From assembly GCA_046292385.1 (NCBI GenBank), contig JBKBRF010000039.1:1-64000 (forward strand): 64,000 bases of DNA. Direction: 5' to 3'. Below, piece after piece: positions 49,013-57,121 of this stretch (its first letter is position 1; each line of letters begins with the position of its first letter). The translations under genes were made by a program, and so were the position numbers. Under the pieces are notes generated by a model, which worked only from the letters and a program-made list of their open reading frames with translations, had not been told where the DNA came from and ran no database searches. The DNA is from Armatimonadota bacterium (GTDB lineage Bacteria > Armatimonadota > SYMT01).

Positions 49013-49429
49013 TCCCTGAGCTTGAGCTGGCTCGCCGTGCGTAGTGTGGCGCGAGGTGGATGCGCGCCTTCCCAGTAGGTTCTGCCGCTCGGCGGCAAGC
49101 AGCGTCGATCTCGTGTGTCCGCCCCCGCGCCCTAGTCGGCCGATTCAGCCCTCCCGCGACGTGTGCCCTCCGCGGCCTTTTCACGCCCTTCGGGCTAGCA
49201 GGCCGCTGCAGGAGTGCGCTTCGGTTCGCTCTTCCCGCGCCATTGCGTTCTACTGCCACATTGGCCGGGTTCACGGGCTGAATCGGCCGCCGTCGAGCGA
49301 CTGCCCCCGGCGCCCGGGGGCAGTCACAATTGCCGTCCTCCGGTGCAGCCTGCGGCTGCCCCTCCGGACGCCTCAGGAAGGGCGCACCATCGGCGTTTAG
49401 CAGAACCACACGCGAAGGAAGTTGGTCCT

Positions 49430-50074
49430 GTGGCGGAACTCTTCAAGACCATCGGCTCCACCGTGCTTCGGGTGCGGTGCGACGACCATCTCTTGCGGCA
49501 GGCACAGGGCGTTCTGGACTCGGCCGCGACGTTTGCGCATACGGAGAACGGTCTTTCTCCTGGTGTCACGATCCAGTTCGGGTGGTCGTTGTTGATGCTG
49601 TGGCCCGACGGAGACCTGCTTGCGATCTGCGAGCCGGATTTCGATGGCGATGCGCTGCGTGCGTTTCGGGATGACGTGAGCTGTACTCTGGAGGTCGTCA
49701 CTCTCCAGACCCAATTCCTCCGGCAGCTTGGGATTGAGGCGGGGTCGCTGCGCTTCGATGAAAAGGTTGTATTCAAGCGAGGCGCCTTGTCAGAGTGTCG
49801 GATCTATGCCGAGAGACAAGCCTCGGCTCCCGGGGATTCCGGCTGGTACGTCGGGCCGGCCGATGACACCACTCCTCCGACTACCGAGGCCCTGACAGCG
49901 TGCCGCGTCTACGAGTTGCTCCGGCTCCGCCCCTCACTGCTTCCGGCTCTGGCGCTCCCGGAAGGCTTTCTGGTGGTGTTCAACGGTGATGCGGTGGAAG
50001 CCGTTCTCGATCCTGGAAATGAGAACCGTTGGCCGGGAGACGCCGGAATGTGGCAGAGCGCCCCCTTTTCCTGA
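49430..50074 (+). CDS. Imm33/DUF2185-like immunity protein
   Basis: TIQFGW..EPDF, GDSGWY, LALPEGF; lower GC and atypical codon usage. Confidence 0.65.
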   Translation: MAELFKTIGSTVLRVRCDDHLLRQAQGVLDSAATFAHTENGLSPGVTIQFGWSLLMLWPDGDLLAICEPDFDGDALRAFRDDVSCTLEVVTLQTQFLRQLGIEAGSLRFDEKVVFKRGALSECRIYAERQASAPGDSGWYVGPADDTTPPTTEALTACRVYELLRLRPSLLPALALPEGFLVVFNGDAVEAVLDPGNENRWPGDAGMWQSAPFS

Positions 50075-50264
50075 AGCACCCGGCCCGGAATGGGGTCAAA
50101 TAGGACGCTCAACGGGTCGCAGTGCTCGCGGCATCGCCGACCCTTACATGGTCATCCAAACGACCGACCAGGCCCTATCGAGTCCCCGAAGGGGGACTTT
50201 GTGCCGTTGTTGCTGCGGTTTCAACCGCCCGGCCGTGAATCAAGATCCTCAAGGAGTACCCCGC

Positions 50265-51536
50265 GTGAATTCCTGGAAAGCCTCCGCCCTTGCCGCGCTC
50301 GGCGTCACCGGACTGGTGGCCGGCGCCGTCGCCCGCCAGCCGGTGGCCGCGGTCGCGCAGAGCGCGCCGAGCTGGCTGTCCGACTTCGAAGCAGCCCGCG
50401 CGCAGGCGCGGCAGTCCGGTAAGCCGATCTTCCTCGTCTTCCGGTGAGAGCGTTGAACGTCTTGCAAGACGCTTGACTCACAGGTGGTGAGTCCTCAAGA
50501 CCCCGAGCTCTCCAAACTGCTCACCGAATTCGTTCCCGCGCGCGTCGTCAACTTCAAGGGCGTCGACCTGAACCGCTTCCAGTTCGACTACGACCTGACG
50601 TTCGCGGTGCTGATGATGAACGCCGACGGGGTGACCTACTCCCGCTTCGGCACGCAGAACGCCGACCACTCGCCGGAGCTGATGTCGATCGCCGGGCTGA
50701 AACAGGCGATGAAGGACGTGCTGGCGGTGCACCGGTCCGGCACGACAGCCGCACCGCCCGCGAAGCAGGCGCCGCTCACGATCGCGGACATCCCCGCGTT
50801 CGCCCGCACGAAGCAGGCGAGCGAGGCGTGCTACCACTGCCACTACGCCAATAACGCCCGGATCGACACGCTGAAGCTGGAGGGCAAGTTCCGTAAGGAG
50901 ATGCTGTTCCAGTACCCGCATCCGGAGAACGTCGGCCTCACGCTCGACCCGGACCGGAACAACGTGGTGAAGGCGGTCCTTCCCGGCTCCCCCGCGGAGA
51001 CTGCGGGGCTCAGGGCGGGCGACCGGATCGCTCGGGCTAATGGCGCGCGGGTCATCACGGGGGCGGACCTTCAGTTCGCGCTGAATCCGGTCCCGGACCC
51101 GGGCTCGATTACGCTGGAGGTGACCCGCGGCGAGCAGAAGCTGCCAGCCGCGAAGCTGGAGCTGCCGCGCGGCTGGCGGCGCACTGACATCAGCTGGCGC
51201 GCCTCCCAGGGCGGGATTTCGCCGACGATGGGCTTCTGGGGCCGGCCGCTGACCGACGAGCAGAAGCGCCCGCACGGCATCGCGCCGGACCGCCTGGCGA
51301 TCGAGGCGAACTTCATGTTCCCCGGCCCGGTCTGGGAGAAGTCGCGCGGCGGGCTGCAGAACGGCGACCTCGTGGTGGAGGTGAACGGGAAGTCGCTCCC
51401 GAGCATGACGATGCGCCAGTTCCACACCTACTTCCGTCTGAACCACGAGGTGGGGGAGACCGTCACGGTGCAGGTGCTCCGCGGCGGGAAGAAGGTTGAC
51501 CTGCGGGTCCCCTGCATCGAGGCGCCGGAAGAGTAG
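50265..51536 (+). CDS. Secreted thioredoxin-like/CxxCH/PDZ protein, probable double selenoprotein (U-x-x-U-x-x-C)
   Basis: AAGGAG RBS and GTG 50265; signal peptide; KPIFLVFR-TGA-ER-TGA-TSCKTLDSQVV joins ORFs 49986-50447 and 50484-51536 in frame; FQFDYDLTF, CYHCH, two PDZ domains. Confidence 0.8.
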
Positions 51537-51602
51537 ACGGAGAGACAGAGCGACAGAGGGACGGAGGGACGGAGAGAGTCGGCGACACCGCGTCGGTGTG
51601 CT

Positions 51603-52814
51603 TCACTCTCTCCGCCCCTCGGCAAGGCCTGCCCCGATGATCAGCTCGATCAGTCGCGCGATGTCCCTGGCGGTCATCCGCGGGTACATTGGGAGGTAGA
51701 CCAGGCGGCGCAGCAGTGCCGCCGCTCGAGCGGGATGCAACTCGGGACGGTCCGCCGGTGCCGGTACTTCGATCAGGCTGGAGGCTCCCCGGGTGGCGTC
51801 GAAGCCGTGTTTCCGGAGGAGGTGGACCAGCGCATCGGGTTCATCCGACTCGATCGGCAGCAGCCACGGAGCGCGGTGCCCGGCCTGCGATCCGGGGAAG
51901 CTGACCTCCGGAAGCGCGGCCCGGACCTCCCGCGTAAACCGCTCCCTTTCCTGGATCCGAAGGTGAGCGCCGGACCGGATGCGGCGGTCGAGCAGCCGGA
52001 GCAGCGGGGCGCAGGGTCGCCGGCGGAGGCGGGCCACCAGATCGGGACCGGAGAAGCCCCGCACTGCCTCACGGAGGAGACGATCGTAATCGATCTTTGC
52101 TGCCCGGCAGGCCGCGGTGAAGAGGGAGAAGCGCCGCGGCTCGGCGAGGCCCTTCAGCACGGCGAAGCGTGCGATCCGCGCGAGATACGCGCGCCGTGAC
52201 TGGAGCGGGTAACCACTCTGGAGGGCGATCACCCGCTTTCGCAGCTCCCCATCTCGGAACCGGAGCAGGGCTCCACCCAGGGCAGTCGACGGCTTGATCG
52301 GGCCGAAGCTGAACATGCTGACATCGGCTTCCGGGTGCCCGCGGTAGCCCGAGCCGTCGTACGCCTGGGCGCAGTCTTCCAGCAGCAGCAGCGAGTGTCT
52401 GCGCGCAGCTTCCGCGACGGCATCCAGCGGCTCGCGGCAGCCGAAGAGCGGCGCGGCCAGAACTGCCCGGGTGCAGGGTGTCACCGCCCGATCGATGGCG
52501 GCGGCCTCGATGGAGAGGGTGGCCGGATCGAGGTCGAGCGGCACCGGCACGAGCCCATGCCATTCCATCAGGCGTACCATGTTCGGGATGGTGAGCGCCG
52601 ACGTGAGCACTTCGCTGCCGGTCGGGAGGGCGAGCGCCTGGAGCGTGAGGTCGAAGCCGCTGCGGACCGACAGGCACGCGACGGCATCTCCCGCCGGCGA
52701 CCAGCGCGCCTCCAGCCGCTCCCGGACCTCCGGCTCACCGCCGGGCAGGACGGAGTAGCCGGTTGCCGCGAGAAGGTCGGTCCACTCGATGTCGAGGGAG
52801 GCGCGGGGGATCAA
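51603..52814 (-). CDS. DegT/DnrJ/EryC1/StrS-family PLP aminotransferase
   Basis: EDCAQA, MFSFGPIK..TA.GGA, YLP.YP. Confidence 0.85.
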   Translation of the reverse strand: MIPRASLDIEWTDLLAATGYSVLPGGEPEVRERLEARWSPAGDAVACLSVRSGFDLTLQALALPTGSEVLTSALTIPNMVRLMEWHGLVPVPLDLDPATLSIEAAAIDRAVTPCTRAVLAAPLFGCREPLDAVAEAARRHSLLLLEDCAQAYDGSGYRGHPEADVSMFSFGPIKPSTALGGALLRFRDGELRKRVIALQSGYPLQSRRAYLARIARFAVLKGLAEPRRFSLFTAACRAAKIDYDRLLREAVRGFSGPDLVARLRRRPCAPLLRLLDRRIRSGAHLRIQERERFTREVRAALPEVSFPGSQAGHRAPWLLPIESDEPDALVHLLRKHGFDATRGASSLIEVPAPADRPELHPARAAALLRRLVYLPMYPRMTARDIARLIELIIGAGLAEGRRE

Positions 52815-52897: not shown

Positions 52898-55800
52898 TTA
52901 TCCCCAGGCCAGTCCCTCCTCTCGGAGGCGGTGGTAGGGGTGCGCGGTCTGGAGCCACTGGCGGTAGACCTCCGCCGTGAGGCCGAGCATGCGGCCGCGG
53001 CGGCCTTCCCGCTCCGTCTCCTCCAGCCGGAGCAGCCCCACGGCGTTCAGCTTCTCCACCGCGGCGCGGAAGACGTAGGGTCGCAGGCTCGGGTCGTCCT
53101 GTGCCGCCGACTGCAGGAGGTCGTCTTCCCACCGCGTCTCGCCGCGCGGGCACTGCTCGGCGAAGAAGGAGATCAGCAGTCGCTCGGGCGCCTCGAGCTG
53201 GCCCCAGACGTGGTCCAGGTGCGCGCCCGCCGCGGCGATGACGGGTCCACTCTCCGCCTCCACGTCGTCCCGCGTCACGTTCCGCTTCCGGAGCCGGTTC
53301 AGCCGCTCCACCAGGTGGAAGCCGAACATCTGCGTGAAGTAGGGGTGCGCGCCGGCCAGCTCCAGCACCGCCTGCAGCGCCTCTTCGTCGTAGGTGACGC
53401 CCGCGGAGCGGACCGGCTCCTCCACCAGCGCCACGGCATCCTGCGGGCGGAGGAAGTCGACGTTCAGGAAGACGCCGATGTTGAACAGGAAGGTGACGTA
53501 GTTCGCCGCGAACTGCCGCAGGATGTGCGTGCCGGAGAAGAGGAACTCGATCCCCTCCGAGTGCTGCATCAGGTGCCGCAGGTAGTCGAAGGCGCGGGAG
53601 TCGAAGGTCCCCTTCATCACGCGCTGGGCGAGCACTTCGAACTCGTCCAGCATCAAGAGCACGCGCCCGCCGCCCAGCTTCCGCCGCACCTCCGGCAGAA
53701 TGACCGTCTCGAACTGGTAGTCGGGCGGGCTCTGGCTGAACTCCGCGAAGCCCGGGAGCTCCACGTTGACCCCGCGCTCCGCCAGCGCGTCTTTCATCCG
53801 CCACGCCAGCCACCAGACGAAGCCGGGGAGGTCGGTGGCGGTGAGGCCCTGGAGGTCGATGAAGAGCGGGGTCAGGTCGCCCGTGAGGCGGTACTGGAGC
53901 TGCTTCAGCGCGGAGGTCTTACCGCTCCGGCGCTCGCCGATCAGGATCAGGATCGTCCGCTGCGCCGGACGGATTAGCCGCTCCCGGACGTTCTGGATGA
54001 TGTCTTCCCGCCCGACGAAGACCGGCGCGCCGCTTTCCAGCGGGGTGCCGACCACATACGGGTTCGGAATTCGCCGGAAGCCGTCGGTGGGGGCGGCGCC
54101 GACCAGCCGTGCCGGGAGCAACGGCGTGCGGCAGTTGCCGCAGAGCCCCGGCAGCGCCTCCGCCTGCGCGCCGAGGACATTCTCGCACTCGGGGCAGAGG
54201 TAGGTCTCTCCGCGGCGCAGCCACTCCGTCTCCTGCGCGGCGGGGGTGCGGGCGTACTCTTCCAGCAGCTCGTCGTAGCGCGCCGCGGCGGCGACCGCTG
54301 CCAGGCGCAGCGCGCGCTCGCGGGCGGAGGGATCGACGCCGGGGAAGGTGACGCGGGACGCGCCTTCGCCGCGGACTGCCCGCTCGATCTGGAGCGCGCA
54401 CCACTCGACGCCGCGCGACTGCACCGTCCGGTCGGCTGCTTGCGAGGCTGCCTGCAGTGCGGGGAGGTCGCCCGCGAGCTGCCGGACGGCGCGGTCCCAC
54501 TCGGCGGGAAGCGGCATGCGGCGGCCCAGCTCGTCCGCCGGTACCAGGCTGGGCGGGAGGGGGATCACGCCCTCCACCGTGTGCAGGTAGCCGAACGCGA
54601 GCCCGAGAAACAGGGCGTCGGACGCGTCCCGCAGGCGCGTGCGGGAGACGAGGCCGGCGGCGTACCAGGGGAGGTCGGCCCGGCTGAAGGCGGTGCCGAC
54701 CTCCCGCAGCGCGGGTCCCTCGAACGCCTCCGCAAGCTGGATGAAGGCGGGGCAGCGTGCCAGGGAGAAGCCGGGATGCTCCGCCAGCGCGGTGAGATAC
54801 TGCGGAGCCCGGGAGCCGGCGAGGCGGATCGAGCGCTCGGCGCCGGCCCCCTCCACCACCAGCGCCAGCGCCTTCGGCACTTCGTTCGCCTTGGCGTCGC
54901 TGAAGAAGACGAGCTCATACTCCGAGGCCATCCCCGCGGGGCGCGCGTGCGGTGGCTCCAGGCCGGGGAGCGCGGCGGCGCCGTTCACCAGCGTCCGCAG
55001 CCGGTACTCCAGCTCCATCGGGTCCCGGTACTGCTCCGCCAGCCGCTGGAAGGCGCTCGCGGAGAGCCAGCCGCGCAGGCGGTCCTCCAGGCGCCGGAAG
55101 AGGTCCAGGTCGATCCGCTGCAGCAGCTCGCCGGCCGCGCGCTCCGGCCCCGCCGCGGGGGCCGCCGAGCCGGCGGCGAGCCACGCGGGCGCCGCGGCGT
55201 CCCGCTCGGCCGGCGCGGCGTCGAGGAGCGACCGTCCCGGCATGGCGAGCAGGCCGTCCTCGCGGCGGACCAGCCACTCCACCCAGCCCTTCCGCAGCTC
55301 CCGGAGCGCGTCCCGCTCGTCTTCCGGGCGGCAGAACGGCAGCCGCCAGCCGCTGTGCGCCACGAACGGCGTCTCCCGGCCCGGCAGCCGCAGCAGGCCG
55401 AGCGCGAGGCGTCCCTCTTCTTCCTCTCGCCGCAGCCATTCCAGCAGCGACGATTCCTGGTCCGCCCAGGCGGAGGAGAACGCCCCCAGCCGGGAGGCGA
55501 CCGCCCTGGCGCGCTCGCCCCAGATGCGGAGCGGCGCCTCCACGCTCGCCCGCAGCTCGCGGAGGAACGGGAGCGACTCCATCCGCAGCGTGTGCGCCAC
55601 GGAAGCGGCGGCGACGCGCTCGTAGTCTTTCGCCAGCGCCCGCAGCGCCGTTCCCCGCCACGGGATCAGGAACGGGTCCCGCCGGGCGGCACCGACCGCC
55701 GTGATGAGCCGCAGCCGGGAGGCGGCGATCGCGTCCCGCGCCGCCTGCCACTCGCCCGCGGGGTCGCTCACGGTGCGCAGCTCCGCGGCCGCTTCCAGGA

Positions 55801-57121
55801 GGACGCGGCCGGTGCGGTCGAGGCTCTGCTCCTCCCGCTCCATCCACTCCGCAGAGCGGCGGCGCAGCTCGTCCAGCGCCTGCTCCGTCAGCTCGCGGGT
55901 GCGGTCGGCCGCCGGGCCCTTCCCCGGGCGCCCGGAAGCCGGAGGAGTGCCGACCGCCTCCCGCAGCGCCTCCTCCAGCTCCGCGTCCATGCCCTGCCAC
56001 TGGGAGACCGGCGCGCGGTGGATCCACGGCAGGCGCGTGCGCACCGGGCGCAGCACCCCCTCGCCGCTGCCGTCGCGCGCGGCGGCGAGCTGCCCGGTGA
56101 CCCGCTCCGCCAGCGCCTGGGGATCGGTGAGCGGGACGCTCCCATGCAGCTCCTGCAGGTGCGGCGGGTGCTCGCCGTGCAGCCAGGAGGCGACCGATCG
56201 CCGCACCAGGTTGCGGTAGACCGCGCGGACCAGCCGCTCCTCCGGATACTCCACCCACTCCGTGCCGAAGGTGCCGAAGCGCTGCGGGTTGCCGTCCGGA
56301 TCGACCGGCGCCACCGCCCCCTCGCGGCTCTCCCGCTCCCGCGCCCAGGTGCCGGCGTCCGCCCCGCAGGCGGTGAGCAGGTAGATCGAGGCGCGGTCCT
56401 GCTGCTCGGAGAGCGGGATCAGGTTCCCCTCGGCGTCGAGCGAGGTGAGCAGCGATACCCGCTGGAACGGCGCTTCCCGGGTGGAGTACGGCTCTTCGCC
56501 GGAAAGGTGCGCGGAGTAGAGGGTCCGCGGGTCGGCGTAGTAGTGAAGCTCCGTTAGCGCCGCGAAGGCGTTGCGTCCGGCGTCCGCCTCCGTGTGCGGC
56601 GGGACCAGCAGGATCGCCCGGCTCTCGACCGGTGTCTGCCCGGCACTCTGGCGCAGCAGGTAGCCGAGGTCCGCCGCGACCGCTCCCCCGGTGCCGCCTC
56701 CGGCCCCCGCCACCACGAAGACCCGCCGGGACGCCGCTCCCGCGGTGTCGGCAAGCCACTGGCCCAGGCGGCTCGCCACGAGGTCCCGGTTCTCCGGCAG
56801 CAGGAAGAGGAAGCGGCCCAGCATCCGCGAGCCGCGCGCGCCCTGCTCTACGTTCCCGGCGCCCCGGAGCACGTCTCGCTCCACCCATTCCGCGTGGAAC
56901 CGCTCCGGCGCCCGGTAGGCCGCGTCGAGGAGCGCCGCCGTGGCGGTGAGCACTACCGTCTCCCCGCCGGACGCCTCCGCGGCGGTGCGGTCGGTATCGA
57001 GCAGCAGGAAGCGGACCTCGCCGCCGCCCGCCTCCAGCGCCGCCGCGCCGAGCCGCTCCCGCAGCCGCCGGGCGACTTCGACTCCGACACCGCCCACGCC
57101 GATGACGAGGGTCTCACTCAT
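52898..57121 (-). CDS. Tubulin/FtsZ-like GTPase, helical region, Zn ribbon and STAND-type P-loop NTPase fusion (1407 aa)
   Basis: N-terminal IGVGGVG and GGGTGG; CPEC..CGNC; NPYVVG.P..FVGRE, Walker A GERRSGKT, Walker B LLMLDEFE, LAGAHPY; winged-helix-like C-terminus. Confidence 0.8.
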   Translation of the reverse strand: MSETLVIGVGGVGVEVARRLRERLGAAALEAGGGEVRFLLLDTDRTAAEASGGETVVLTATAALLDAAYRAPERFHAEWVERDVLRGAGNVEQGARGSRMLGRFLFLLPENRDLVASRLGQWLADTAGAASRRVFVVAGAGGGTGGAVAADLGYLLRQSAGQTPVESRAILLVPPHTEADAGRNAFAALTELHYYADPRTLYSAHLSGEEPYSTREAPFQRVSLLTSLDAEGNLIPLSEQQDRASIYLLTACGADAGTWARERESREGAVAPVDPDGNPQRFGTFGTEWVEYPEERLVRAVYRNLVRRSVASWLHGEHPPHLQELHGSVPLTDPQALAERVTGQLAAARDGSGEGVLRPVRTRLPWIHRAPVSQWQGMDAELEEALREAVGTPPASGRPGKGPAADRTRELTEQALDELRRRSAEWMEREEQSLDRTGRVLLEAAAELRTVSDPAGEWQAARDAIAASRLRLITAVGAARRDPFLIPWRGTALRALAKDYERVAAASVAHTLRMESLPFLRELRASVEAPLRIWGERARAVASRLGAFSSAWADQESSLLEWLRREEEEGRLALGLLRLPGRETPFVAHSGWRLPFCRPEDERDALRELRKGWVEWLVRREDGLLAMPGRSLLDAAPAERDAAAPAWLAAGSAAPAAGPERAAGELLQRIDLDLFRRLEDRLRGWLSASAFQRLAEQYRDPMELEYRLRTLVNGAAALPGLEPPHARPAGMASEYELVFFSDAKANEVPKALALVVEGAGAERSIRLAGSRAPQYLTALAEHPGFSLARCPAFIQLAEAFEGPALREVGTAFSRADLPWYAAGLVSRTRLRDASDALFLGLAFGYLHTVEGVIPLPPSLVPADELGRRMPLPAEWDRAVRQLAGDLPALQAASQAADRTVQSRGVEWCALQIERAVRGEGASRVTFPGVDPSARERALRLAAVAAAARYDELLEEYARTPAAQETEWLRRGETYLCPECENVLGAQAEALPGLCGNCRTPLLPARLVGAAPTDGFRRIPNPYVVGTPLESGAPVFVGREDIIQNVRERLIRPAQRTILILIGERRSGKTSALKQLQYRLTGDLTPLFIDLQGLTATDLPGFVWWLAWRMKDALAERGVNVELPGFAEFSQSPPDYQFETVILPEVRRKLGGGRVLLMLDEFEVLAQRVMKGTFDSRAFDYLRHLMQHSEGIEFLFSGTHILRQFAANYVTFLFNIGVFLNVDFLRPQDAVALVEEPVRSAGVTYDEEALQAVLELAGAHPYFTQMFGFHLVERLNRLRKRNVTRDDVEAESGPVIAAAGAHLDHVWGQLEAPERLLISFFAEQCPRGETRWEDDLLQSAAQDDPSLRPYVFRAAVEKLNAVGLLRLEETEREGRRGRMLGLTAEVYRQWLQTAHPYHRLREEGLAWG

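Follow-up and report, generated by a model that had tools for sequence, protein, structure and literature searches.

How should a gene be read when two TGA codons, only three codons apart, stand in one reading frame? The question is raised by a 64,000-nucleotide stretch from an Armatimonadota bacterium (contig JBKBRF010000039.1 of GenBank assembly GCA_046292385.1, positions 1 to 64,000 of the forward strand; hereafter, the window). At 50265..51536, an earlier inspection of the letters (the original prediction) had proposed a hidden gene for a thioredoxin/PDZ protein with two selenocysteine (Sec) residues, each possibly provided with its own selenocysteine insertion sequence (SECIS). The answer that we favour, with a probability of roughly two in three (0.68), is that of one intact gene for an exported thioredoxin/PDZ protein with two Sec residues, where a single SECIS would be used twice and a smaller hairpin would help decoding of the UGA more distant from it.

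The open reading frames (ORFs) 49986-50447 and 50484-51536 share the same frame, as had been proposed, with TGA at 50445-50447 and 50454-50456 and TGC at 50463-50465. When TGA is translated as Sec (U), the read-through sequence is ...IFLVFR-U-ER-U-TS-C-KTLDSQVV, corresponding to a C-x-x-C-x-x-C triad in which the first two positions are occupied by U. The elements needed for the argument are the following.

50265..51536, + strand: coding sequence of the Trx7/PDZ selenoprotein, 423 codons, with predicted Sec61 and Sec64 and a TAG stop at 51534-51536.
50373..50624, + strand: Thioredoxin_7 domain, residues 37-120 (Pfam PF13899, E 9.2e-13), covering both TGAs.
50445..50447, + strand: UGA1, predicted Sec61, position 1 of the triad, aligned with an invariant Cys.
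50454..50456, + strand: UGA2, predicted Sec64, position 2 of the triad, the nucleophilic site of the canonical thioredoxin motif, aligned with an invariant Cys.
50463..50465, + strand: UGC, Cys67, position 3 of the triad, which corresponds to the resolving Cys in the canonical motif.
50458..50471, + strand: hairpin 1, CGUCU-UGCA-AGACG, whose loop falls on the codon for Cys67.
50475..50493, + strand: hairpin 2, the predicted SECIS, GACUCAC-AGGUG-GUGAGUC, encoding D-S-Q-V-V-S.

Are both TGAs selenocysteine codons? The FRCxxCxxC family of Trx7/PDZ proteins, to which the original prediction had referred, exists as NCBIfam NF041199. The read-through protein scores 414.7 bits against this profile, for a cut-off of 300, with residues 36-416 lying on profile positions 2-389 of 390, and it has the architecture of the family, an N-terminal Thioredoxin_7 domain followed by two PDZ domains. 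In a six-frame search, the profile gives 398.3 bits with 2 TGA within the match. Alignment with homologues places both TGAs opposite invariant Cys of the triad. The triad and a downstream C-x-H-C-H motif (C157, H159, C160, and H161 in the alignment numbering) are invariant in 22/22 aligned sequences; their status as a family hallmark is a reading of this alignment and not the curators' definition. Family match and alignment together bear out the proposal of one hidden gene with two Sec codons.

The genome (7.04 Mb, 91 contigs) also contains selA, selB, selC (tRNA-Sec), and selD, as should be the case if the gene is to be decoded. The scores for selA (486.8 bits), selB (367.5 bits), and selD (362.3 bits) are each above the respective cut-off. 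The selA and selD genes and a 99-nt tRNA-Sec(tca) are clustered on contig C11 (87434-89894, - strand; loci L001 and L010), the tRNA gene adjoining selD, which itself holds one in-frame TGA; selB is found apart from this cluster, on contig C16. ARAGORN also reports a second, shorter tRNA-SeC(tca) of 83 nt on contig C77 (16947-17029, + strand), which may be spurious or a further gene resembling selC. With the machinery present and the Cys positions invariant, both UGAs, three codons apart, would very probably be read as selenocysteine.

The contrary view is that no read-through occurs, the locus being a broken gene, a gene for a 350-residue PDZ product starting at GTG 50484, or a gene in which UGA stands for a residue other than Sec. 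Public gene calls agree with it: the call for the window gene is only the 350-residue ORF 50484-51536 (P0002), the same holds for most close relatives, and even an NCBI entry named 'Trx7/PDZ domain-containing (seleno)protein' is shortened, to 354 residues. However, the 350-residue ORF is devoid of strand 1 and of the active site of the Trx7 domain, which is matched across the TGAs. The upstream part, the frame, the TGAs, and the SECIS are conserved in Armatimonadota, Planctomycetota, Verrucomicrobiota, and Poribacteria, none of the 10 Cys forms has the SECIS, and the Sec machinery is complete. Altogether, the absence of read-through is scarcely credible.

How widespread is the arrangement? Three NF041199 paralogues occur in the genome. 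The window gene and the paralogue on contig C50 (L012; 15281-16402, + strand; FR-U-ER-U-PSC) have two TGAs each, the latter also with a hairpin in the spacer that separates UGA2 from the SECIS, and the paralogue on contig C59 (L013; 20602-21771, - strand; RCVP-U-AAC) has one. Of 401 genomes sampled evenly across the phylum, 26 had a match at E <= 1e-60, and among the 33 matches listed, seven had two TGAs (in four genomes), six had one, and 20 had none. Pattern-based scans of genome and metagenome collections brought 160 further loci, and a motif search was run over 182 loci. It gave 151 distinct segments, namely 80 UxxUxxC (UU), 61 CxxUxxC (CU), 10 CxxCxxC (CC), and no UC forms, in proportions that do not amount to a census. 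Position 2 is TGA in 141/151 of these distinct forms, and position 1 is never TGA unless position 2 is TGA as well. The UxxU form was found in metagenome-assembled genomes labelled Armatimonadota, Planctomycetota, Verrucomicrobiota, and Poribacteria. The layout had been thought to be rare; with two TGAs in 7 of the 33 listed matches of the phylum sample and in 80 of the 151 distinct forms, the predicted double-Sec UxxU form is instead common in the NF041199 family, across at least four phyla.

Twenty-one loci fall outside the motif search. The UxxU forms among them are two without the third Cys (L068 and L179) and one at a contig start; two more are CxxU, two have CxxC only, one is CxxCxxxxC, and eleven are Cys-poor; of the rest, one has no N-terminus and one no C-x-H-C-H. 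In L068 (G236:C505; U-ER-U-GDN) and in L179, on a metagenome contig (U-MP-U-RDS), the third Cys of the triad is replaced. The existence of these two UxxU forms suggests that U61 and U64 would be able to form a redox pair, a diselenide, by themselves. As a separate observation, the Cys-poor relatives L062, L063, L066, L069, L077-L080, L082, and L168 keep the first triad Cys only, together with C-x-H-C-H; they may represent a non-redox or differently acting subfamily.

Which element would direct the insertion of Sec? Both hairpins lie where the original prediction had placed them, and both are conserved features. Hairpin 2 begins 18 nt (stem) and 25 nt (loop) after UGA2, and 27 and 34 nt, respectively, after UGA1. 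Its loop is nearly always AGGUU or AGGUG across the Sec forms, a sequence that resembles the apical loop of E. coli fdhF. With a fixed register and at least 6/7 pairs, hairpin 2 is found in 77/80 UU and 58/61 CU forms (135/141 Sec forms) and in 0/10 CC forms. Over 77 Sec forms, its cells are paired at 98.3%, against 88.4% in column shuffles, none of which (0/500) reaches 98.3%, and slid registers give 25-55%. The fifth pair (35-45) covaries (AU 27, GC 27, CG 12, and UA 9). At the protein level, the hairpin encodes D-x-Q-V/L-x-R, where the two x residues co-vary with pairing kept. Available sections of a 2026 review describe the bacterial SECIS (bSECIS) as a 3-9 nt loop on a 4-16 bp stem, with 16-37 nt from UGA to loop, a minimum free energy (MFE) of at most -7.5 kcal/mol, and a G within the first two loop positions, mostly as G[G|U] (PMC13188914). 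Hairpin 2 falls within all these bounds for both UGAs, thanks to a 5-nt loop, 7 bp, G-G at loop positions 2-3, and a free energy of -9.1 kcal/mol when folded alone (z -2.98, 4/200 shuffles as good). An Rfam scan of 50300-50700 at E <= 10 returned two chance-level matches and no SECIS family. By its predicted fold, hairpin 2 is a canonical SECIS in the accepted range of both UGAs.

The status of hairpin 1 is less straightforward. It starts about 10 nt after UGA1, its loop 15 nt after. Folded alone, the 18-nt spacer that contains it has a free energy of -4.8 kcal/mol (z -2.28, 9/200 shuffles as good), and the 56-nt stretch 50445-50500 is unexceptional (z -1.22, 24/200 shuffles as good). Within the window alone, both hairpins are only mildly unusual, and the case that they exceed chance rests on the comparative data. 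Spacers with an MFE of -3 kcal/mol or lower are found in 74/80 UU forms, 18/61 CU forms, and 1/10 CC forms. In 67 of the 74 stable UU spacers, the Cys codon forms the centre of the loop, with 37 distinct stem sequences, and the hairpin of the stable CU spacers is mostly shifted to the 5′ side (14/18). Every synonymous recoding of each spacer was then enumerated, and the stability of the native sequence was ranked among them. The native spacer belongs to the most stable 5% in 48/65 unique UU spacers, 6/50 CU, and 0/9 CC. That of the window is stabler than 98.4% of its synonymous recodings (p = 0.0156). Among the paralogues, free energies are -4.8 kcal/mol for the window gene, -5.2 for C50, and -3.4 for C59, the last one yet unremarkable among its synonymous recodings (p = 0.49). 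Identical peptides encoded by different codons behave in the same way: LACKSL has spacers at -3.6 and -6.6 kcal/mol in UU forms versus -2.3, 0, and 0 in CU forms, and KDCSSF has -6.2 in a UU form versus -0.9 in a CU form. Finally, a FastTree phylogeny of 148 proteins, computed after masking the residues of motif, spacer, and SECIS, has at least 15 changes between the UU and CU states. On supported branches, 8 independent UU/CU pairs could be drawn, a larger set obtained by adding metagenome loci, where the hairpin follows UGA1 in 5.7 pairs, goes the opposite way in 0.2, and does not differ in 2.1 (sign test with the energy criterion, median p = 0.031).

It may be asked whether the spacer hairpin has a recoding role at all, or is rather a by-product of residue preferences, mRNA stability, or lineage codon use. 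UU forms do prefer D, A, or S before Cys67 and S or G two positions after, hairpins occur in some CU forms too, and the evolutionary contrasts that are independent number only 8. Residue preferences would nevertheless leave unexplained the weight of synonymous codon choice, so different between UU and CU spacers, the folding of identical peptides in UU and not in CU forms, and the 37 stems related by compensatory changes at one shared position; such a by-product is improbable. These comparisons indicate that hairpin 1 is under selection, tied to UGA1 and kept by synonymous codon choice, and that, as a class, it occurs almost only in the predicted two-Sec form.

Does hairpin 1 then act as a second SECIS? 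In such a mechanism, close to what had been suggested at first, hairpin 1 would bind SelB for UGA1 and hairpin 2 would do so for UGA2. The hairpin is essentially present only where UGA1 is, its loop bears G at position 2, and the loop spacing, 15 nt after UGA1, is near the geometry of E. coli fdhF. In addition, some selD genes of the phylum appear to have only a small, proximal GGC-loop hairpin about 13 nt after the UGA, so small proximal SECIS elements may exist. On the other side, the 4-nt loop and 5-bp stem of hairpin 1 are acceptable for a bSECIS, but three features are not: the loop G is followed by C, the 15-nt spacing is just below the 16-37 nt range, and -4.8 kcal/mol does not reach -7.5. 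Across the family, spacer stems have 3-7 bp and about -3 to -9 kcal/mol. The Cys codon imposes the loop G, after which comes C or U instead of G/U. The loops (UGCA, UGCAA, UGCAAA, UGUGC, and others) are unlike the invariant AGGUK (K, G or U) that the same SelB must recognise. L068, which has lost the third Cys, keeps a codon-selected spacer hairpin with the loop ACAA, without any G, and single-UGA selD genes carry both hairpins too. Since hairpin 2 alone serves the single-Sec relatives and is in range of both UGAs, the idea that each Sec has its own SECIS does not hold well, and a SelB-binding hairpin 1 appears unlikely.

A helper role for hairpin 1 is favoured over a second SECIS for three reasons: its loops share only the Cys codon whereas SelB needs AGGUK, the L068 loop ACAA has no G, and the single-UGA selD also has a codon-selected hairpin before its SECIS. 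In the mechanism that we favour, hairpin 2 would recruit the SelB-GTP-Sec-tRNASec complex for both UGA1 and UGA2, a single SECIS apparently serving both codons, and the product would be U61-E-R-U64-T-S-C67 from two UGAs nine bases apart. The 18-nt distance from UGA2 to the SECIS would reproduce the geometry of every single-Sec relative. Because it starts about 10 nt after UGA1, hairpin 1 could keep its fold at the mRNA entrance as long as UGA1 occupies the A site. Rather than a second SECIS, it would be an accessory element of the two-Sec form that reduces the effective distance between UGA1 and the SECIS, slows the ribosome, or both, and a pause could let a second SelB complex load. Movement by nine bases to UGA2 would then melt hairpin 1 and leave the 18-nt linear spacing of the single-Sec forms.

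If such a helper exists, is it restricted to this family? The selD genes offer a parallel. In single-UGA selD, a codon-selected hairpin separates the UGA from an AGGUG-type SECIS that follows at 24-25 nt, and the selD of the present genome has an AGGUG-type SECIS about 25 nt downstream of its TGA, behind a folded spacer. The two-hairpin layout occurs in 8/21 Sec forms of selD versus 0/10 Cys forms, in at least three lineages including this genome. A small spacer hairpin without sequence specificity could be a general accessory of bacterial Sec recoding, extending the reach of one SECIS, a proposal to which we would give even odds. In this general model, the hairpin would fold just outside the ribosome, and either bring into range a SECIS about 25-27 nt away or cause a pause during which SelB is reloaded. 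At the selD loci L235, L237, L243, L245, L248, and L254, the TGA has no AGGUG hairpin, and the only hairpin, GGUCC-GGC-GGACC, lies about 13 nt downstream of the UGA. Because of these genes with the proximal GGC hairpin only, SECIS type and spacing must be considered to vary between lineages of the phylum. As a test of the helper idea, selD is only partly informative.

Several points weigh against the single-SECIS mechanism with its helper. Some concern the selD parallel, which is thin, 6/8 positive cases coming from one genus; furthermore, the SelB proteins of this phylum may accept proximal small hairpins, which would favour one SECIS per UGA. Others concern folding. The free MFE structure of the 56-nt stretch does not contain hairpin 1, bases 50445-50454 pairing instead, bases that would lie under a ribosome placed on UGA1. 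Because the Cys codon dictates which base stands at position 2 of the loop in hairpin 1, the G found there argues neither way. The association with UGA1 is also imperfect: 6/80 UU spacers are weaker than -3 kcal/mol, 18/61 CU spacers, as well as those of L099 and L102, are at -3 or better, and 4/18 of the stable CU hairpins (plus L099 and L102) sit in the UU position. With only 8 pairs, the phylogenetic support is moderate, not overwhelming. The sign test is borderline with the synonymous-coding criterion (median p = 0.0625), an earlier run on 87 forms had only 4 pairs and no power (median p = 0.5), and the tree is that of FastTree, not of a careful search. Lastly, the synonymous test weights codons equally, GC bias being controlled through the comparison with CU and CC forms only, and the retrieval patterns were derived from the clade of the query.

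What would the protein do? Besides the Thioredoxin_7 domain, the following features can be recognised.

50251..50256, + strand: Shine-Dalgarno-like AAGGAG, a candidate read from the sequence, 8 nt 5′ of the GTG start at 50265.
50265..50357, + strand: probable Sec-type (export) signal peptide, with K5, a hydrophobic stretch A6-A23, and AVA before QS; the cleavage site is uncertain.
50829..50843, + strand: C-x-H-C-H motif (CYHCH, residues 189-193), invariant, a candidate metal or heme site.
50922..51140, + strand: PDZ domain 1, about residues 220-292 (Pfam PDZ_6 and PDZ).
51351..51509, + strand: PDZ domain 2, about residues 363-415 (Pfam PDZ_2, best stretch 363-415).

The N-termini of the homologues are likewise basic and hydrophobic, and from its N-terminal sequence the protein is probably exported with a signal peptide. 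An AlphaFold2 model built from the 22-sequence alignment (predicted local distance difference test, pLDDT, 92.8; predicted template modelling score, pTM, 0.90) has a strand at 23-28 followed by a helix at 33-43 (alignment numbering). The model would place U64-x-x-C67 at the position of the canonical thioredoxin CxxC and U61 at the end of the strand. The PDZ tandem resembles DegP, DegQ, and RseP both by sequence, in a search of solved structures, and by fold, with Foldseek against the PDB; the same searches gave nothing informative for the thioredoxin part or the C-x-H-C-H region. CYHCH is a CxxCH-type motif whose middle His is also invariant, and it could bind a metal or heme; Pfam gave no cytochrome family at E <= 0.1, nor did the Foldseek matches in the PDB include a cytochrome fold. 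The protein is probably an exported thiol/selenol-disulfide oxidoreductase with PDZ domains that would bind the substrate, its redox chemistry possibly involving a U61/U64 diselenide or a U64/C67 selenylsulfide.

The neighbours of the gene in the window are unrelated to it: subunits of a 2-oxoacid:ferredoxin oxidoreductase, an Imm33-like protein (49214-50074, + strand, 286 residues with an Imm33-like domain), a DegT-type aminotransferase, and a tubulin-like/AAA protein (52898-57121, - strand, 1407 residues, with an N-terminal tubulin-like domain, PF13809, and AAA_22). No neighbour gene is conserved in more than 10/83 loci, and a consensus scan for promoters and terminators found nothing. Downstream, 35 nt after the stop, a compound inverted repeat at 51571-51613 (GGAGAGAGU ... 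ACUCUCUCC, with the inner hairpin ACACCG-CGU-CGGUGU) shares bases with the end of the DegT-type gene, which is convergent; the repeat lacks a T run and was not called by the terminator scan. A genome scan for SECIS elements with AGGYK or AGUUG loops returned the three paralogues, one TlpA-like gene with W-U-G-A-C, and one doubtful low-complexity ORF (C30). The TlpA-like gene lies on the minus strand of contig C6 (position 70466 on the reverse complement) in a 501-codon frame, probably shorter from the true start, whose C-terminal part is TlpA/redoxin-like and contains W-U-G-A-C, with a hairpin CGCGCGG-AGGCU-CCGCGCG 9 nt after the TGA; this frame is probably another unannotated selenoprotein gene.

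What, then, is new with respect to known systems? The family and the Sec at its second position are already known, and the gene in itself is an annotation fix. In the available part of a survey of Global Ocean Sampling (GOS) data, the family appears among the selenoproteins, with CxxU as its motif and under the name 'putative secreted serine protease MucD' (PMC2398784); NF041199 is likewise given as CxxU with one Sec in the review sections cited above (PMC13188914) and as CxxU in the accessible part of a further review (PMC9312934). The window gene shares with this single-Sec form the hidden Markov model score, the domain order, the triad, C-x-H-C-H, Sec at position 2, and the SECIS, and differs from it by an additional predicted Sec at triad position 1 and by the spacer hairpin. 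In the literature searched, neither a UxxU form of NF041199 nor the spacer hairpin was found, although supplements, BSepDB, or the NCBIfam description may list two-Sec members. Beyond the catalogue would then be a widespread UxxU form, seemingly one SECIS for two codons, and a hairpin kept by codon choice and tracking UGA1. A general helper hairpin, if true, would also explain how UxxU diselenide sites can evolve from CxxU through one point mutation and a few synonymous changes. Uses may be imagined in the engineering of proteins with diselenide sites and in selenoprotein gene finders, whose predictions end at the first UGA or the second.

Other proteins with neighbouring Sec residues have been described. 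The same sections of the review list as UxxU a Prx-like thiol:disulfide oxidoreductase (UxxC/UxxU, 1-2 Sec), the NF041115 metal-binding protein, and an FmdB-family protein, and, as another two-Sec case, ferredoxin-thioredoxin reductase (CxU, 2 Sec; PMC13188914). As far as these sections describe them, they likewise have two Sec a few codons apart at a redox or metal site, in different folds and families.

A more distant parallel is eukaryotic selenoprotein P, whose mRNA has many UGAs and SECIS elements in the 3′-untranslated region (UTR). Fewer SECIS than Sec codons on one mRNA would be common to both cases, a resemblance in principle only: selenoprotein P relies on the SBP2/eEFSec machinery and on 3′-UTR elements, unlike the present gene. 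In bacteria, SECIS function is usually described as tightly distance-dependent. In comparison with a canonical bSECIS, one element of the window gene would act at both 25 and 34 nt in one round of translation, the longer distance spanning an intervening hairpin. The locus may offer a natural and repeatedly evolved case of decoding of a second, more distant UGA, which can be tested with reporters.

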